From Phallusia mammillata (Eukaryota), in NCBI GenBank assembly GCA_965637545.1, contig OZ281500.1, positions 12,586,001 through 12,650,000 on the forward strand: a stretch of 64,000 nt of DNA, given 5' to 3'. The notes below the pieces were generated by a model. It made no database searches. It saw nothing but the letters and a program-made list of their open reading frames with translations, and was not told the DNA's origin. The position numbers and the translations under genes were made by a program. Positions 1 to 57,975 of the stretch are shown piece after piece (within the stretch, counting starts at the first letter, position 1; every line of letters begins with the position of its first letter).

Positions 1-2965
1 TAAATCGCCTCCTGGCCACCACAGAAATCGCAAGGCATCCCTGTCCTTAGGGGAAACACGAATCTGGTGGAACATCGATTCTATATCGGCCACTAAAGCG
101 TACCGCTCTTTGCGAAATCGAGTCAAAACACCCACCAAACTGTTTATGAGATCCGGGCCCTGCATCAGCACATCATTGAGGGAAACGCCCTTGTGCTTTG
201 CAGCGCAATCAAAAACTACACGAACCTTGTCTGGCTTAAGGGGATGAAGTACAGGATGATGTGGTAAATACCAGCAAACACCATCAACCGATTCGATGTC
301 TTCTCGAGGTATCTCTCTTGCGTGCCCTTTCTCGAGGTAGGACTGCATTGTGCTCACGTACTTTTCCTTCAGTGAGTGATCCTTCTCCAGGCGTCGCTTC
401 AAGTATGTCAGCCGTCTTTCGGCCATTCGCTTGTTATCCGGCAAACAAGCTGAGCTATCTCTCCACGGCAACGGCAGCTCATAGTGACCTTCCACCATTT
501 TCACGTCTTTTTGCATGATACCATACGTCTTTCTGTCTTCGCGCGACGTGGGGAAATGTAGAACAGCAGTTTCGTCCCCAAAATCCGTCTCCCACAGACT
601 AGAGATTTGCTTCTGTAGACAGCTGTCTCTAGACTTCACGAAGTTCACCTGGTACCTCGATGATGCACACGGAAGGAGTGACGGACCAAATAATGTCCAT
701 CCAAAAGGTGTCTTGACAGCAAACGGTTTCCCTTTTGGACCACGACGCATCTCCTCAATGAACAAGGCGTCTGGATTATCCAGACCAATCAGCAATGTTA
801 CAGTTCCTTTCTCGATTAAGGGGAAATCCAAGTCACGTAAATGTGGGGCACCCCTTAATGCTTCTTTGCTAAGAATCGGATTAGGACGAACGGGAATTTC
901 ACCAACGGTTATTACTTTAGGGAGAAATATATCATCTCCGCCACCTACTGGAGAAACAGAGAAACTCACTGCCGTATGCTGTTTGGCTTCATCTGTCAGT
1001 GTTTGTAAAACAATCTCCTTAGTTTCACCTTTCATGCCCAGGGCTTCAATCAACCTTTGGTTACAGAAGGTTCCGGTAGAGCCGATATCCAAAAATGCGT
1101 AAGTTAAAACCTTCGTATTTTACCTCGACCGGTACGACGCATTGATACACGTCGTCGTAACCACATTCGCCCGGCGTTGCCACTGAACATGAAGCGACCT
1201 TTTGCGGCCCAGTTGGTGTCGCTTTGCGGCTGGAGCAGGCCTATGCAGCAATGTGTGGTGGCAGTGACTCGAACAGTCGTTTTCTTCGCAGGCAGTTCTC
1301 GCCTTGCATCGTCTAACACGGTGACCTGGAGTAAGGCATCTGAAGCACAATCTCTTACGACTGACGAATTCCACACGTTCGGAGTACGTTTTTCGTTTGA
1401 ACTCAAAGCACTTAGGCAAATCGTGAGCCTTACCACAGAACAGACACGTAGCGGAAGTAGTCGGCCTCTCTGTCGGACGCTGTCGAACTTCAACTGGGTT
1501 CACAACGTAGGCAGACGCTCTCGGCTTTCTCATCGGTGGACCAGGATCCTTGTCGCGCCTAGATCCCATAATCCTACTTCCGTAAAGGGAATTTTCCACC
1601 TCAGCACGCTCCGAAACAAACTGAACAAAGTGGCTAAACCCGGCTTCACGATTAGTGTGATGAAGAACTTCCACTGATCGCTCTATCCATCTTTCCTGCA
1701 AGCGATATGGCAACTTGTCAATGAGCTGCAGCATGGTGTCAAGTGAATTAAGACCGGCATATTCATCAATATCCTCCAGTGTAGTGAGACATTTTTCCAG
1801 CAGATCTGCAAACTGCATTAGTCGTTCCGGTTGATCTCCTTTCAAGCGAGGACTCTTCTTCAAATGCTGCTCACAGGCATTTGCGATAATGTGCGGCTGT
1901 CCGTACTCATGAAAAAGCTTTTGACGTGCCTGTCGGTAACCCTCGACTGGCCTTTTCGTCAAGTGATCAATTTTAGGTCGCACTCTGTCGTCACAATGCT
2001 GCAGCAGATAAACCAACCGCAAATCGTCAGAGTGAACTTTAGTGGCAACGTGCGCTTCAAAGTTGCGAATGAACGTCCAATATTCCATCGGATCACCATT
2101 AAACGACATTATCTTCGGACGAGGTAAAAAAACGTTCATCTGAGTTGTAGCGTGGTTCCTGCGCTACAAGAGGACCTTCCCTATTTGGACAATTGTATTG
2201 CGGAGTAGCATAGATAGGAGGCTGATGACTTACTTTAGGCAGCTCCTGCCTATCACAACGCGGTACAGGTTTTGGACATTCGTTGACCGTTTGTACAAAA
2301 GGCCTCTCTACGGTTGGCGGACAAACGAATTCCGCTTCAAATTTACCTTCCCATCCGCGAGCTTCGATTTCGGCTAATTCGGCTTGACGTTGTATCTCGC
2401 GAATTTCGGCGTCGGCAGCCAACTGGCGCTCTGTCTCGCGCAAGTTCTGTTCTTCGTTACGCAAATTATGTTCTCCATCACGCAATTTCCTTCGTCGCTC
2501 ATTCTCTTCCTCTTGTCTCTCCTTGGCCTGACGAAGTTTTGCGCGAACCATCTCAAACTTAATTCGTGCTTCAGTTCTGCGGACGCTGGAACTCGTACTC
2601 GCAGAAGTAGGGCAACTAGAAGTGGAACCTTTTGCCGACTTTTTTGAACCAACTGGTGGCGGAAGGGACGTAGAATGCTAGGCCTTTTCAATCCATTCAG
2701 CAACCCTGGCATCGAACTCAGTCTTCTCCTCAGCGTATCGCTTTAACAAATCCTCATCAAGATCTTCATTTTCAGACAAATTTGAAGTTATATGCTCCAC
2801 AAGAAGTCGGTATCTTCCATCGACAATTCGCACCGACGAATGCACACAAACCAAGTTTTTGGGACTGACCATTAATCGTTCCGTTCGGGTGTAGGCTTCT
2901 TGCAATGAACGTTGCAGTTTGACGAGCTGTTCACCCTTATCCTCTTCAGTCGTGTCGGAATTCAT
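1..2965 (-). pseudogene. BEL family 1 gag-pol, broken into several frames
   Basis: ORF pieces 2678-2965, 2099-2551 and 1120-2139, plus the minus frame under 515-1102 and 1-518, give a colinear gag-PR-RT with frame changes between pieces. Confidence 0.85.
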
Positions 2966-3075
2966 TTTTCTTCACCTAGCGGCAGTTTCTTTCCAACGAG
3001 CAAAGTAGAAAGCTTCTCTCGATCGGCGACAGTTGAAACTTTACTTTCAACGAGCAGTAGTTGAAAACTTCTTTA

Positions 3076-4462
3076 TGTAGACTCTGAACGGCCGACCTGC
3101 AAGGCTGAGCCTCACAAAGGGGTTTTTTCACGTTGAAACACGCCCCGCCCTTTCCCACACAAATCACACTTCCCGAATCTCGTGTAATAATCCACAGCGA
3201 CAACAGCGGCAACAACCACAACGTCGTACACAATCAGGAACGGACAGAAACAAGAATGAGAACGGAAACGGGAACGGAGACGGGAACGGTTTTCTAAACA
3301 AGAAAACGAAACACATTGACATATGTCAACGCACAAAAATGCCAATGTCTAACTTACAAACTATTTTGCGACACAGGTCAACAGGTACAGTTCACGTATC
3401 AACAGTTGCAAGACGATGAAACAATCGCTGCAATGACTATAGGAAAATACAGCATGCCATAAGTTACACATAAACGCCATGAATTAATTTAGGTCACAAG
3501 TCAAATTAAACACTCACCGACAATCACGGTAAACAGGCTTCACTTGAAGATTAATTAGTCAGTCGTCACAATATTTAATATAGCCTTAGTCGTCTCTAAA
3601 AATGTAACACAAACGAATTTACTTAATGCAGTTATAAATCACCTTGCTCGACCACGTTGTACAGTAAATGAATCAATCATTGCAACCAGGGTTGCCAGGT
3701 ACTGTCGGCTGGATTCGGACAGTATTTGTCTGAAAATCGGACATTTTAGGACAAAAAAAACGAGAGCGTAAAATTGCTAACAAGGTATCAATATCGAGGT
3801 GCCATCTGCCATTTTTTGTGCGTTTACGTTCCCCAAAGTGACGGACGTAAAATATGACGTCACTTATGCGTGCAACCACTAGAACTGAAATCCAAACTTG
3901 AAGCCCAACAAACGTCCTATGTTTGAAATAATATTTAGTTGGCAATTGCAACACGTTGCTGTAGTGTTTATCATTGGTTTCGCACCGTTTAAAAAATGTT
4001 TCGTCAACTTGTTGCTTCATATCACCTTAGATAACCATTTGTTACAATACAATTGCTTTGTACACAACAATGGTCATTCACTAGCAGACAATTATGTATT
4101 TAATGTCATAAACAAGGTACTAACCAAAACAAGTTGTACTTTTAAACCACGTTTTGTCGTAAAAAAGGGTTTGCAACCTTCAAAAAATAGGAAGGAGACA
4201 AAAAGTTATTCAATCAGCAAAATTCGGACATATTAGGACAAAAAACTAAACGTCCTAATGATTTTTACGCGTCGGACACAGCATGTGGAATTAGGCCAAT
4301 TTATCGTTTTTTGTCCGATTTTTAGGCCACCTGGCAACCCTGATTGCAACATACAGACAATAGCCTTCCAATTTTACTGTTACGCACATGGCGATTGTAA
4401 CGTCATAGCAGGGGAATAATGAGACAAGTTAATCATGCGTATCTGAACGTGGACATGTAACA
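3076..4462 (-). repeat. 5' LTR of BEL family 1 (about 720 bp without the MITE)
   Basis: TGTTACA start at 4462. The inner end is inferred at ...TCTACA (3076) because the following leader resembles that of family 2. The partner LTR is outside the window, so the inner boundary is unconfirmed. Confidence 0.6.
3687..4342. mobile_element. hAT-type MITE inserted in BEL1 LTR
   Basis: Perfect 14-bp TIR CAGGGTTGCCAGGT; 8-bp TSD ATTGCAAC (3679-3686, 4343-4350). Confidence 0.93.
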
Positions 4463-4467
4463 CTGCT

Positions 4468-5142
4468 TGTAACGTCAGGAATTTGCGCGCCTGGTACCGC
4501 GCTGGCGTCACACTAGAGAAGTCCAATTTCTGCAAACGCGTGAATTTATTTTACACTTCGACACGGTAATCACGTCACGTTCACCGTAGACACGACACGA
4601 CACGATAGACACGTTCAAGATAATCACGGTTTTCTGCAAAGAGAACATTCACTCAAAAATGCGAAACAGAAATTAAATTTATACAGGCAGAAATAAAGCT
4701 TACCAGAGTTTTGGACCAGGGTATCAAAGATAAACACAGTTTGATATCACCAGAAAGTGTTCTACACAGATAAAAAACGTAGACTTTTAATATACGGTTA
4801 ATTGCGATAAGACAACTTTAATGCAAATCAAGCTTACCTTGCAAAGGCAACATTAATCCTTTTCGTCAGAGTTTTTAAGTTTATAAAGCATTACCATCTA
4901 TTAATGACAAACAAATTATAATTAGTCACTTTCATTACTTTATCTAACGTTTGCAAATTAAAGTCAGCAACTAACAAACTACACGTGGTCCAAACTAAAC
5001 TCGATACTAAATGGCCAAAAGCACAGCATAGAGAAATAAACTACAATGATATTGTTACGTCATAGGGGATTCTGGCATTGTGGTGCAATCACACCATATA
5101 AGATGTGACGTAGGTTACGGTTGAGTGATTTACGATGTTACA
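4468..5142 (-). repeat. 3' LTR of BEL2 (675 bp)
   Basis: Matches 13020-13709 except for two substitutions and a 15-bp indel seen by eye; TGT...ACA termini. Confidence 0.97.
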
Positions 5143-12903: not shown

Positions 12904-13019
12904 CGTGGCGAAAGTCGCTTTATAGATAACTCTGGAATCCTTGTATATAGTAGCCTCTGGAAACTTTATTTCCAGGTAACTCTGAAAACTTTATTTTCAG
13001 CAAACTCTGAAAACTTTAA

Positions 13020-13709
13020 TGTAACGTCAGGAATTTGCGCGCCTGGTACCGCGCTGGCGTCACACTAGAGAAGTCCAATTTCTGGAAACGCGTGAATTTA
13101 TTTTACACTTCGACGCGGTTCAATAGGACACGGTAATCACGTCACGTTCACCGTAGACACGACACGACACGATAGACACGTTCAAGATAATCACGGTTTT
13201 CTGCAAAGAGAACATTCACTCAAAAATGCGAAACAGAAATTAAATTTATACCGGCAGAAATAAAGCTTACCAGAGTTTTGGACCAGGGTATCAAAGATAA
13301 ACACAGTTTGATATCACCAGAAAGTGTTCTACACAGATAAAAAACGTAGACTTTTAATATACGGTTAATTGCGATAAGACAACTTTAATGCAAATCAAGC
13401 TTACCTTGCAAAGGCAACATTAATCCTTTTCGTCAGAGTTTTTAAGTTTATAAAGCATTACCATCTATTAATGACAAACAAATTATAATTAGTCACTTTC
13501 ATTACTTTATCTAACGTTTGCAAATTAAAGTCAGCAACTAACAAACTACACGTGGTCCAAACTAAACTCGATACTAAATGGCCAAAAGCACAGCATAGAG
13601 AAATAAACTACAATGATATTGTTACGTCATAGGGGATTCTGGCATTGTGGTGCAATCACACCATATAAGATGTGACGTAGGTTACGGTTGAGTGATTTAC
13701 GATGTTACA
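13020..13709 (-). repeat. 5' LTR of BEL2 (690 bp)
   Basis: Near-identical to 4468-5142; contains AATAAA on the sense strand; followed by the gag leader. Confidence 0.97.
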
Positions 13710-14214: not shown

Positions 14215-15515
14215 TCCCCAAAGTTTGTCCGACTCGTTTTTCCATCAAATCCTTGATGGATTTGGATGAAACTTACACAGATGGTAGATGTAGTTATGTA
14301 GATGTGCATCCCACTTTGTTTTTGTTGATAACCCCAGTATTTACCCCGCTAGACCTCTAAAATAGGTATTTTTTCCCCGAAGTTTGTCCGACTCGTTTTT
14401 CCATCAAATGTTTGATGGATTTGGGTGAAATTTAAACAGATGGTAGATGTAGTTATGTAGATGTGCATCCCTCTTTGTTTTTGTTGATAACCCCAGCAAG
14501 GGCGTCCGCACATAGGGGCAAATGGGGTCAGCTGACCCCCCCTGGAAAATTTTTGGATGAAAAATGAAAAAGCGAGAACATGCAAAAATAGGCAATTTTC
14601 TGAAAGAGGGAGGAGTAAAGGTGATACGAGTGATGGCTGGCTGGTCAAGCTCTCCGATTGTGATCATCACCCTTTTCGGGAGTATCCCACCCTCTATTAA
14701 TTTACGAAGATACCTACAAGCTACCCGTAATCGCAAAATTTGACAACTTGAGCTCCTGTACCCTCAGAACCACATTACTAGTGTGGGCACTGGCTTTATC
14801 TCACATAAATCTGAAGAAGGATAATTCACAGTTTCAGATAAAATCTATAAAATCATTATCCAATAACCTATCAACGCGACGTTCCGGATATTTCACTTTG
14901 TTGATGAACTCGTTAGCGTCCTCCTGAGCATGACAATGCCAAGCACTACTAACATGGTTTCGAGCAGAGTTATGGAAATTTATACTTTATACATGGAGCA
15001 CTGGTGAATGCGCCAGTTGTGTCACGATGAATAGGCTGCCGAAAGAGCACACACAATTTGCACATGCGCCCTCTTAGGAGAGGAGAATACGCTGGCCACC
15101 GAAAGGGCAGAGTGAACCCTCCTTGACCCTCACTAACCGAAAACCTGCGGACGCCCTTGAACCCCAGTATTTACCCCGCTAGCCCCCTAAAATGGGTATT
15201 TTCCCCCGAAGTTTGTCCGACTCGTTTTTCTATCGAATGTTTGATGGATTTGGCTGAAATTTACGCAGGTGGTTGATGTAGTTATGTAGATGTGCATGCC
15301 ACTTTGTTTTTGTTGATAACCCCAGTATTTACCCCGCTAGCCCCCTAAAATGGTTTTTCCCCCCAAAGTTTGTCTGACTTGTTTTGCCATCAAATGATTG
15401 ATGGATGTGGCTGAAACTTATACAGATGGTAGATATAGTTATGTAGATGTGCATCCCAATTTGTTTGTCCGGATAACCTTAGTATTTACTCCGCTAGCCC
15501 CCTAAAAGGGGTGAG
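14215..15515. repeat. ~158-bp minisatellite, about 4 units, interrupted by a MITE
   Basis: Unit starts (CCCC(A/G)AAGTTTGTC) recur near 14216, 14375, 15204 and 15361. Confidence 0.9.
14497..15159. mobile_element. hAT-type MITE/deletion derivative
   Basis: Perfect TIR CAAGGGCGTCCGCA; TSD AACCCCAG (14489-14496, 15160-15167). Confidence 0.93.
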
Positions 15516-34200: not shown

Positions 34201-37200
34201 GGGGATGTTTTAGTTTCGTCTTGTAACTGATGAGGTGTGAAACTTTATGTTTGTTTGATGTTGAAGCAGGAAATTAGGAAGTAGCGTTACAAAATGGTTT
34301 AAAGCAGCAACTGTTAAAATACTGTGTGCTGTTGTTGTGAAGCTGCTCGGTCAACTTAAGGCAAAAGTATGTTTTTGAAACGAACTTCTTCACACTCGAA
34401 GAACCGCCATGCATACAAGGAGGTACGGTATATTTGTTTCTTTTTGATTTTAACAGGAAAACGATTTTAAAAGCTAGATTGTCTAATCTCATGTAACTGG
34501 AAGCACCGCTTAATGGATGTAAAGGTTTGCTTTCTGACGGTTTTGCATGTTTTTGTTAAACTGTTACTTCTCTACGATTTGTGGACTTGAATTTATTTTT
34601 GTAAAAACGTTTCTTTGTAAACTTTATCCAGGCTTGGTAGAGTATTGTTTGGCGTAGTTTATTAGGTGGTAAATTGTAAAAAGGTGAGGAGACAAAAACG
34701 CTGACTCAGCCAATCTTCCTTTGTGGCCTGTTTGACGCGATAATAAGTTTGTAAACGTAAAGTGGCTTTTGTTTACATCGACTCAAAGCACGCTCTGCAG
34801 TAGTGCGTTCTATTTCCGGTAGGTTGAGAAATATACCCGAGTTGTAATACCCTGTTGCTCTTATCGTACTCTTTGCCATCCGGCCCATTGCTGACGCTTG
34901 CGGTCAATACTTAACATCACACGTGTCTTCACACTAAGCATCTCTTCTGACCACCTGACTGCCGCGGGCTTAAATCCATGTTAAAACGTTCACTCTGGCA
35001 TACATTTGTTTGCTGAGGTCAGGATTGGTGTCTTTTAACGTCAACACTCTCTTGCTGTTACATTGCATGTCGCGTACGACTAATGAGCACCGCTCTTGAT
35101 GGCAAAGTTAATTACTGCCAGAGGGAAAATAATACATGTAAATGCCCCCTCTATTGCAGTTTCAATATTGTAATCCGTAATTTGCGTAGGGCTTAGATAT
35201 GGAGCTTCGTTGCAGGAACTACGTGTAGAACTTAGTTAGAGAGTTTTGCTGCTTTACTTGTTTGCAAGTTCAGACTTAATTTTCTGTAATTGGTTCTTCT
35301 TTAGCTGTGCTTTTTGCTGTGTTTAAGGTTGAATATTAACAACATGATAAAATTACGCTTGGAAAGGATTTGCTTAGGTAGCAAACTTGCTAGAAAACTC
35401 TACCGCAATCATTTGACGGTGTCAGGAAAAACTGTTTTCCTGTTTTTTGTTCTTGGCCTACTGATTGTTCTGCGGCGGAATTTTCGAGTGCCTCCGTCGC
35501 ATCGTAAACGTTTGGTTGTAACGTACAGAAGCTTGAAGTTACACGGTGATGAAACAACTAAAACTCTGAGCGGCATTCCTAAGCCTTGGCCACCAGAAAA
35601 ACTGAAGACCGTTTGTTCTCTCGATGACCTGCAAGATCAAAGAATCGGCAGAACACCTCAAGTACAACTGGACCGAAACAAATTTCTTTATCCAATATTG
35701 ACAAACGGTCCCAACAACCAAGTTATCGGACTACGAGACTCGATATACCTTGCAATGCGACTTAATCGAACACTAATTTTGCCAGACTTTCGCAAACACA
35801 AGACTGATTCTTCTGGTGCATTGGATGTTGTTCCCGTGGAGGTACGGATCGACTTAAGTCGTCTGTCAACATTTGTTTCTGTCGCTTCCAGTGCTGATTT
35901 GTCACAGATTTGTCGCGGCAAATTCGACGCAGTTTTTCTTACTGATCGTTCGCAATCAATGTACGAGTTTTTACCGAAAGCAAAACTTCGAAACGAAGCA
36001 CACCTTAACATCAGCAGTGACGTTGCGATTTTTCCACGTGACGTGAAAGATTGCACTCTTGCCCGCGACGATGACGGAAATGGCCGAAGGATTCGATTGC
36101 TTTATGAATCCAATGCCAGATGTGCGTTGTACGTCTATCCTTTTCGAAGTGTAGATGCAAGGGAGTCGGCTGCACAGATTCGAAATGCGCAAACCGCATT
36201 GAATACTGGCTCAGTTGACTTTAGCGTCCGGCCAGGAAAAACTTTGTACTCTTTGGCGTTTGCTGCCACCACCCGTCCGAAATACGTCACACACATTGCT
36301 CAGACGTTTTCAACTAAAATTTCTGCCGCAAAAATGATCGCTGTGCATTGGAGGTTTGATGTTGAAGATTGGATGGTGAGGTGCGGAAAGCAGACTGCCG
36401 AGTCGAACAACACACAAGTAGTTGATATGTGCTACAAGCTGCAGAGAATTAATGCGGTTGACATCGCTGAGGCGATTTTGTCCTTTGCTCGTGAACTGGA
36501 AAGCAGAACTTATGTAAAAGTCGATGCAGTTTACTTCGCCGCCCCTCTCACTCTTTCAACTCTTGCCAACGAAGTTCGTCGTCGTGTTCTCTCCATAGAC
36601 CGCTCGCGTCTTAGGCTGTACATTTACGCCGACCTGAAGGACCATTTAAGGAAATTCGGTGACTGCGAAATGATACACGACAACCGGGAAGAGGTTTTGT
36701 CCCTTGTGGAAATGGAAATCGCTTCAAAGGCCTTCGCTTTTCTTCGCTCCCCAACCTCATCGTGGTCTAACAATGTTGTTCGCGAACGAATTACAGCGAA
36801 AACAAATCGCCATGACGCAAATGTGCTGAAGCTGACGTGGGATGCTCACGCAAAAATTAACAGCAACAGTTGATGTATTTTTATCCATTTTGTTAGTTAT
36901 TGTCATACTAAGCAAGTTTTGTTGGTATGTTTAACATGAATTTGTTTGTGACCGAGGTAGTACGCGAGATGTTAAGCAGACATAATTCGTTGTGGTCGTG
37001 TTTCTTGTCAGGTTATAAAAGCCTTTAGCGTTAGGTTCTACAAATTGACGTTTATTGACAAAAATACCTTTACACTATAACACAATACAGACATACTCGT
37101 GAAAGAAATTTAAAGCACTTTTTATGCAAGAGTGGCTAAAATGTAATGCGTCTTTAGGACAAGCATTGGTTGCATCGACTTACAGTGTAGACGAATCTTT

Positions 37201-57055: not shown

Positions 57056-57932
57056 TGTTACATCGCCTTGTACATATGTTTATGTTTTCTGTGTTTCCCG
57101 CCAGTAGCCTTGATTCGTGTGTATGACGCAGTGTTGTGCAACCTGATACATTGTCTGGCACACTATCGGTGATTGTGATGTCACAACTTTGACATTGTTT
57201 ATTGGTAACACGTCTTGTAAGCAAGACCGCCTCGTGTTTATTAGTGACTGGAACTTACAGCGTCTGCATGCGTTTTTTAACTGGTCATTTATGTTTGTTT
57301 TTTGTGTAACAAACAGGAAAATTATGCTGTTTAGAAACTGAATCGTCCAATGTGTGACTTGTATATTTAGTGATCGGTAAGCATATGTTTAAACCTTGTT
57401 GTGACCTTTTGGATTTGAATTTATATGAAACCTGTATTCAGACGTGAATTCCGCCGTCGTCCAACCCCGTGTTATTCTGAACCGAACTGTGTTATTCCGG
57501 TAAGATTATTGTTGCTTAAGTTTGCCGTCAGTCACTAGTGTGATTAAGTGATGTTTATATGTGATGTTATTAGATGCTGTGTTTACAGACCTTCTACTGA
57601 TCGCTTGCATTTAAACGACTCCAGTCCTTTAATAGTTTGGTAAGCGTAAATGTCATTGAAATTCTCCTTCTGTTGCCTTGTCTTAATTTGAACATTTTTT
57701 GTAGAAACCGCCTTTTGACCCCTTGTACTCGCCGTGCTGCCATACTCTCGAGCGCCATCTTTCGGCTATATTGTAAAATAAAAGAGTTCGTTATATAGCT
57801 GCTGGCGTCTTGGAGTTTGAGCGCAAGGAAAGGCGCGTTAAAGACAATTTTAGGAACACAAGCGATCGCCCCTGTTGTGCTGTCTGGAGGCGCATGGAGT
57901 CACGCCTTCCGATAATTAAAGACAGCGCAACA
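57056..57932 (+). repeat. 5' LTR of BEL3
   Basis: TGTTACA...CAACA; AATAAA near 57777. Confidence 0.97.
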
Positions 57933-57975
57933 TCGTTTGAAACTTCTGGACACTTGAACACCCACGGCTTGTTGA

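Follow-up and report, generated by a model that had tools for sequence, protein, structure and literature searches.

LTR retrotransposons are known to start reverse transcription from tRNAs, from half-tRNAs or, in Tf1-like elements, from the 5′ end of their own RNA. Self-priming of the latter kind is an established property of Tf1, and the Tf1/sushi group, Tcn1 and the TAR elements are predicted to use it as well (PMC4600332, PMC7175516, PMC6317226, 10.1101/2022.12.06.519325, PMC5443660, PMC3601003, PMC8220671). In Tf1, the RNase H cut falls between bases 11 and 12 (PMC7175516, PMC4600332). As for BEL/Pao elements, term counts for PBS (primer-binding site) and tRNA are zero in the main text of PMC554778 and PMC3118150, and the portions of the full-text literature covered here, a scope outside which subscription journals, repeat-database reports and supplements fall, contain neither a self-priming BEL/Pao element nor a primer made by splicing. 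The sequence comparisons described below indicate that the BEL/Pao elements described here very probably prime themselves in a Tf1-like manner with a primer that would be made by splicing.

The window analysed is a 64-kb stretch (G000:C7:12586001-12650000) of a 240-Mb genome, and it contains the BEL/Pao retrotransposon BEL1, whose 5′ LTR and leader lie on the minus strand, together with two further elements, BEL2 and BEL3. The BEL1 gag-pol frame starts at an ATG at position 2965 and occupies 1..2965 of the minus strand, extending past the window edge and being broken into several frames in this copy. A domain search identified DUF1759 in the window copy of BEL1, and Peptidase_A17, rve and DUF5641 in neighbouring pieces of the window. 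The family open reading frame spans 1911 amino acids, and a protein record matching it at 99% carries PF05380, PF03564, PF00665 and PF18701. The closest protein record to the family reverse transcriptase (RT) region, with 99% identity, is ascidian, and the further named matches come from urchins, corals, a sea star and ascidians. Membership in BEL/Pao follows from Pao-type gag-pol domains with RT ahead of integrase, as well as from TG...CA LTR pairs, a target-site duplication (matching at 4 of 5 bases for BEL1 in the window) and a purine tract. No relatives of the elements were found among the viral contigs searched, no Rfam family reaches the gathering score within 2900-4500, and no tRNA genes were found within the 64-kb window. 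As to the surroundings, the BEL2 insertion abuts the edge of the BEL1 5′ LTR at 4463-4467, the 5-bp duplication of BEL2 being the five bases that flank BEL1. Elsewhere in the window, a 155-nt direct repeat is present four times at 14216-15515 (81-90% mutual likeness), and an open frame of 522 amino acids at 35305-36873 has a weak, below cut-off match to O-fucosyltransferase.

The BEL1 5′ LTR (3076..4462, minus strand) has TG...CA ends and matches its own 3′ LTR, located to the left of the window, at 94-97%. In other copies the LTR is about 716 nt long (length taken from L151); the window copy is interrupted by a 656-nt inverted-repeat insert (3687..4342) that lies within an 8-bp target duplication inside the LTR, is missing from the element's own 3′ LTR, is joined across by contigs, and has no part in the mechanism. 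Inserts of this type, which we take to be hAT-like, are abundant. The end of the LTR can be fixed at 3076, as the element's own 3′ LTR stops at the same base, and 30 loci diverge exactly there, 12 passing into unrelated flank and 18 into the leader. Read along the minus strand, the LTR contains a GT..AG intron of 81 nt in this copy (3437..3517), and then a second one of 64 nt, hereafter the primer intron (GTAAGT..TTTAG, 3294..3357), with the donor GT beginning at 3357 and the acceptor AG finishing at 3294. The latter separates the end of the upstream exon (3358..3363), the predicted 5′ half of a primer, from its predicted 3′ half, AAAAC (3289..3293).

The sequence-only reading of this stretch had proposed that the spliced joint TAGTTT/AAAAC pairs at 10 of 11 positions with GTTTTCAACTA in the leader, at 3068..3058 on the minus strand, with a weaker copy of the site at 3031-3039, and had made the proposal depend on where the LTR really ends and on whether the family sequence keeps the pairing. 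Both sites are indeed present in the window, and the LTR end at 3076 places the pairing site in the leader, after a spacer of 7 nt (3069..3075). A site at that distance downstream of the LTR occupies the position of a PBS, and it is best read as such rather than as a general structural pairing. The pairing is not lost in the family form, which pairs better than the window copy. Its single mismatch, at the final base of the upstream exon, is private to this 5′ LTR, the pairing base being found in the element's own 3′ LTR and in 28 of 30 loci; an exact search retrieved 63 BEL1 LTRs with the pairing form. Across the family the junction pairs over 10-13 bp. Under a perfect-match rule the window copy alone is at chance level (87/100 shuffles reach it), while the 13-bp family form in L002 is reached by none of 100. 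For L002 the predicted energy of the junction duplex is −15.0 kcal/mol, compared with −8.6 for the unspliced donor side, −5.7 for the acceptor side and −6.5 for a local hairpin. Bases 1-10 of the PBS are identical in 18/18 BEL1 copies and the next two are hypervariable, 9/18 copies departing from the majority at base 11 and 7/18 at base 12. Downstream, the predicted local hairpin arm that would compete for the PBS lies at 3045..3051, the degenerate second copy of the site at 3039..3031 and a third, more degenerate one at 3013..3004, for which only −2.6 kcal/mol is predicted with the window junction (all on the minus strand). The BEL1 PBS lies in a tandem leader unit of about 27 nt (window 2966-3075), present in one to four or more copies per element (L009-L016, L022, L028), and akin repeats are seen in families F2, F4 and F7; they possibly derive from repeated slips during plus-strand transfer.

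The other two elements of the window repeat the BEL1 layout with other letters. In BEL2 (13002..13278, minus strand), the exon ends at 13278..13271, the intron covers 13270..13201, the LTR ends at 13020 and the PBS at 13014..13002 matches over 13 bp, the site being intact in 12 of the 13 loci that have a leader. In BEL3 (57634..57944, plus strand), the end of the exon (57634..57639) is followed by the intron (57640..57704), the LTR end at 57932 and the PBS at 57935..57944, which pairs at 9 of 10 positions in the window copy and over the full 10 bp in 8/9 copies.

The generality of this arrangement was addressed with 60 stretches around BEL domain matches, 53 of them with an LTR-like repeat (some poorly bounded), from which one representative of each of 11 further families was taken, giving 14 families together with BEL1-BEL3. 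RT regions of the families are 42-66% identical pairwise, in a comparison of 23 rows that omits F6, F14 and one F4 copy, which have no long RT frame. In every one of the 14 the leader is complementary to its own LTR over 10-15 bp, the site beginning 2-7 nt past the LTR and its partner lying about 90-300 nt before the LTR end. In nine families a GT..AG intron (62-229 nt) splits the match at G/A-run-C, and in the other five the match is contiguous; shuffled leaders reach the observed length in only 0-3 of 100. A strict rule (donor GT[AG]AG, intron of at most 150 nt) misses F5, F7, F9 and F10, so the rule was widened and the shuffles were redone with it. Pairing ends sharply at the same position in 14/14 families, which in BEL1 is the predicted cut just past 3289. 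In F1, F2, F4 and F7 the PBS is constant over 10-11 nt and then becomes abruptly variable, as expected where the copy of a primer ends; F3, F5 and F9 have no such step. F8 has no primer intron and a 15-bp contiguous match, and it is placed among intron families in the RT comparison, which suggests that its contiguous match arose by intron loss. No TGG tRNA-type site is found after the BEL1 LTR or after the well-bounded LTRs of the 14 families, whose leaders start with T..GTT or with TCATT/TAATT. The short, 4.2-kb elements of F14 (L148-L150) share LTR ends with F13, and in L149, which has a contiguous self-match of 14 bp, no full RT region was found; they are likely non-autonomous partners.

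The survey was extended to 79 metagenome loci, 15 of which were non-duplicate with an LTR end fixed by two copies, the other 64 being duplicates or untestable. Twelve of these 15 elements have a split match, two a contiguous one, and one a TGG-type site without self-match; the BEL/Pao relative L220 has a TGG-type site. Ten of the 12 split cases follow the strict rule (10-15 bp, reached by 0-1 of 200 shuffles), and the other two were counted through an any-GT donor or a corrected LTR. Altogether, 28 of 29 elements have a PBS, adjacent to the LTR, that pairs with their own LTR transcript over at least 10 bp, in 21 cases across an intron, whereas leaders of foreign elements reach this length in 51 of 812 combinations. 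Pairing averages 11.6 with the own leader and 6.9 with foreign ones among these elements, whose RT identities are about 40-75%. The own leader is strictly the best in 17/29 rows and best or tied in 23/29; it is not always the best because A/T-rich sites cross-match. The earlier proposal that both partners differ together from one element to the next is therefore borne out. Its corollary, that such covariation is the signature of selected base-pairing, may stand only in part, since selection need not be the whole cause and copying of the primer may contribute.

A second, candidate helix would pair X (3374..3379) with Y (3094..3099, in a predicted U5 hairpin loop), both on the minus strand. It was spotted by eye in the 14 families of this genome, in which it is family-specific and passes a permutation test (1 and 7 per 100,000 permutations). 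In 12 held-out elements it was not confirmed (14,648 and 11,286 per 100,000).

The 64-nt primer intron is real, as DNA evidence demonstrates. In L159/L160, a whole BEL1 copy with identical LTRs of 578 nt and a 5-bp duplication, both the upstream intron and the primer intron are absent from both LTRs exactly at their GT..AG borders; the intron upstream of the primer is thus also spliced out in BEL1. In L161, a solo F4 LTR, three introns of 173, 64 and 60 nt are exactly gone, the last being the primer intron. Such LTRs are rare (2 intronless versus 63 in BEL1), and no intronless BEL2 joint was found in the search. Looking for exact matches to the BEL1 joint extended by two bases gave 0, a misleading blank, because the sole intronless element has a substitution there. 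At the RNA level the support is indirect: in runs guessed to be RNA, contigs from three studies stop at 3358 and 3387, and others stop at 3518, 3547 and 3408, positions at which an assembly graph built from a mixture of spliced and unspliced RNA would branch. One X1 contig exits the window at 3518 with 29 letters left over, the length to the predicted merge. The primer splice joint is not among the joints listed for four runs (guessed to be RNA, one probably DNA), a listing that leaves out 46 joints, and no run recorded as RNA was found to contain the stretch.

In the model that accounts best for these data, removal of the LTR intron creates the 10-15 nt match to the site just past the LTR, and the spliced joint would anneal at the PBS. 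A cut would then be made at the 3′ edge of the joint, after AAAAC, presumably by the RNase H of the element by analogy with Tf1 (PMC7175516). The RNA thus cut would prime minus-strand DNA in place of a tRNA. It is established for tRNA primers that the PBS is re-copied from the primer during plus-strand synthesis. The same would hold for the present elements, in which case copying may account for some of the match; either way, the match points to the junction as primer.

The length of the putative primer is suggested by L243, an aberrant F7 insertion (G000:C2:19392014-19395031, at 1229-2189). It begins with LTR positions 1-177 (100% identity), followed by the spliced leader (SL), which stands where the genomic acceptor would be, by exon 196-295 (100%) and by the spliced joint. 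The sequence then changes to the complementary strand, running from PBS and spacer through U5 and exon 2 into 84 nt of intron (99.7%), folds back at a short inverted repeat and finishes as a sense copy reaching the LTR end and the spacer (99.5%). The change to minus-strand sequence takes place at the base equivalent to 3289 at the latest, and the cDNA end keeps the F7 spacer. Read on the other strand, synthesis would have started at the spacer, copied U5 into the unspliced intron, folded back and copied itself, continued through an attached, spliced and SL-capped RNA, and finally jumped to U3. One continuous synthesis through an attached primer would thus explain L243, which resembles a copied primer-cDNA hybrid. 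It is a single event without a clean target duplication, and since the 11-nt joint necessarily reads as the PBS in reverse complement, a template switch at this homology could yield the same letters. Even so, the presence of the spliced leader shows that the exon part derives from a processed RNA 5′ end. The F7 primer would accordingly be a long 5′ RNA piece of about 120 nt, comprising the spliced leader, a 98-nt exon and the joint. A Tf1-like primer consisting of the capped 10-11 nt at the start of the RNA was also considered and was dropped for F7, where the donor lies 98 nt downstream of the point at which the spliced leader is attached.

The ascidian spliced leader of 16 nt (PMC1488885, Table 1) is also found in LTR DNA elsewhere, written exactly or in decayed form at an acceptor (L107, L133, L134, L136, L117, L142, L149): it occurs at 3/18 F7 sites, is exact in 4/6 F12 LTRs and is decayed in F9, F13 and F14. 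As it ends in AG, it could serve as the next trans-splice acceptor. L107 carries the 16-nt spliced leader in both LTRs and retains a 229-nt primer intron. L106 and L107 each have one LTR apparently broken near its 3′ end, with a poly(A) run ahead of the break in L107.

Copying through RNA should strip introns. The LTR intron would persist if the usual template of LTR DNA is unspliced RNA, be it the 3′ LTR of the molecule that supplies the primer or a partner RNA packaged with it; the few copies that have lost all their introns would have had spliced templates. The two options for an unspliced template differ in their demands. If priming takes place in trans, a spliced RNA would give the primer and a separate RNA, unspliced at its 5′ end, would act as template, and no difference in splicing between the 5′ and 3′ LTRs is needed; we give this variant of the self-priming model slightly less than an even chance. 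L107 speaks for it, as copying of an SL-capped, intron-retaining RNA seems to have reached its 5′ end, making an unspliced partner the likelier template, and the SL-like relics in F9, F12, F13 and F14 LTRs point in the same direction; L107 could nevertheless also come from a double template switch onto the primer tail. On the other hand, the substitution in L159/L160, which is present in both LTRs, represents one event and falls on the predicted last primer base, is what an untemplated base added at a cut template end would give, and we infer that it fits a template that was itself cut, that is, priming in cis. In the cis route, nonsense-mediated decay could be what eliminates molecules with a spliced 3′ LTR.

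A different possibility is that the duplex is real but acts as a structural or regulatory switch, e.g., in packaging, dimerisation, translation or the distinction between spliced and unspliced RNA, with priming by other means such as a tRNA fragment. A local hairpin can cover the PBS in F1, F2 and F4 (it is weak or absent in F3, F9 and F13), and several families carry the site in tandem copies, features that would suit a switch. We nevertheless consider this explanation improbable, given that the site lies exactly at the PBS position, that no TGG site follows any well-bounded LTR, that the letters vary among 28 elements while matching the own LTR in each, and that in L243 the exon passes into minus-strand sequence at the PBS. 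Finally, the reading of the match as functionless today, a product of chance or history in an A/T-rich LTR and leader or a side effect of the local hairpin, is highly improbable and already largely refuted: the non-significant window copy (87/100 shuffles) and the 51/812 foreign pairings at 10 bp would agree with it, but it is contradicted by own pairings in 28/29 elements at this length (mean 11.6 versus 6.9) at a fixed position and at RT identities of about 40-75%, and by the invariance of the first 10 PBS bases in 18/18 BEL1 copies.

Self-priming by a splice-made primer, if true, would represent a further priming route, in which the primer exists only after splicing; reverse transcription would be tied to host splicing, and the stable introns of a retroelement would be explained. 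A large BEL/Pao lineage would also gain the primer site that it seemed to lack. The broader scenario, in which the host spliceosome licenses reverse transcription in a widespread BEL/Pao lineage of marine animals, through a spliced, SL-capped primer and an unspliced LTR template that allow LTR introns to be kept indefinitely, is in our view somewhat favoured. The model predicts an RNA 3′ end 4-10 nt past the known acceptor and, at a base that can be specified in advance, a junction between RNA and DNA.

Compared with tRNA-primed BEL/Pao elements (Belpaoviridae), the elements described here share a single gag-pol, RT/RNase H before integrase, TG...CA LTRs, 5-bp target duplications and the purine tract, and differ in that the 14 families have no TGG site. 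A lack of tRNA priming has also been proposed in the TAR lineage of plant Ty1/copia (Houba, Osr-1), a second superfamily, and in Tcn1, where, as here, self-priming is predicted from LTR-PBS complementarity (PMC6317226). That survey relied on contiguous blastn matches of at least 10 bp and, unlike the present case, the elements involve no splicing (PMC6317226); a contiguous-match test misses a primer split by an intron. The closest parallel is provided by Tf1 and Tf2 of Schizosaccharomyces pombe, Tj1 and the Tf1/sushi group, which likewise lack a tRNA site and have a PBS past the 5′ LTR that pairs with about 11 nt of their own LTR-encoded RNA (PMC7175516, PMC4600332). In contrast to Tf1, 21/29 elements have a spliceosomal intron interrupting the pairing segment, and, while the Tf1 primer is the RNA 5′ end, the F7 segment lies about 110 nt inside an SL-capped RNA. 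Tf1 is described as forming a three-duplex 'pretzel' (10.1101/2022.12.06.519325); here, a U5 hairpin is predicted next to the PBS, together with a weak and variable stem on the 3′ side of the primer. The Tf1/sushi elements are Ty3/gypsy chromoviruses, whereas those described here, with Peptidase_A17, DUF1759 and DUF5641, are BEL/Pao: the feature works like Tf1 self-priming, in elements that are not members of the Tf1/sushi group.
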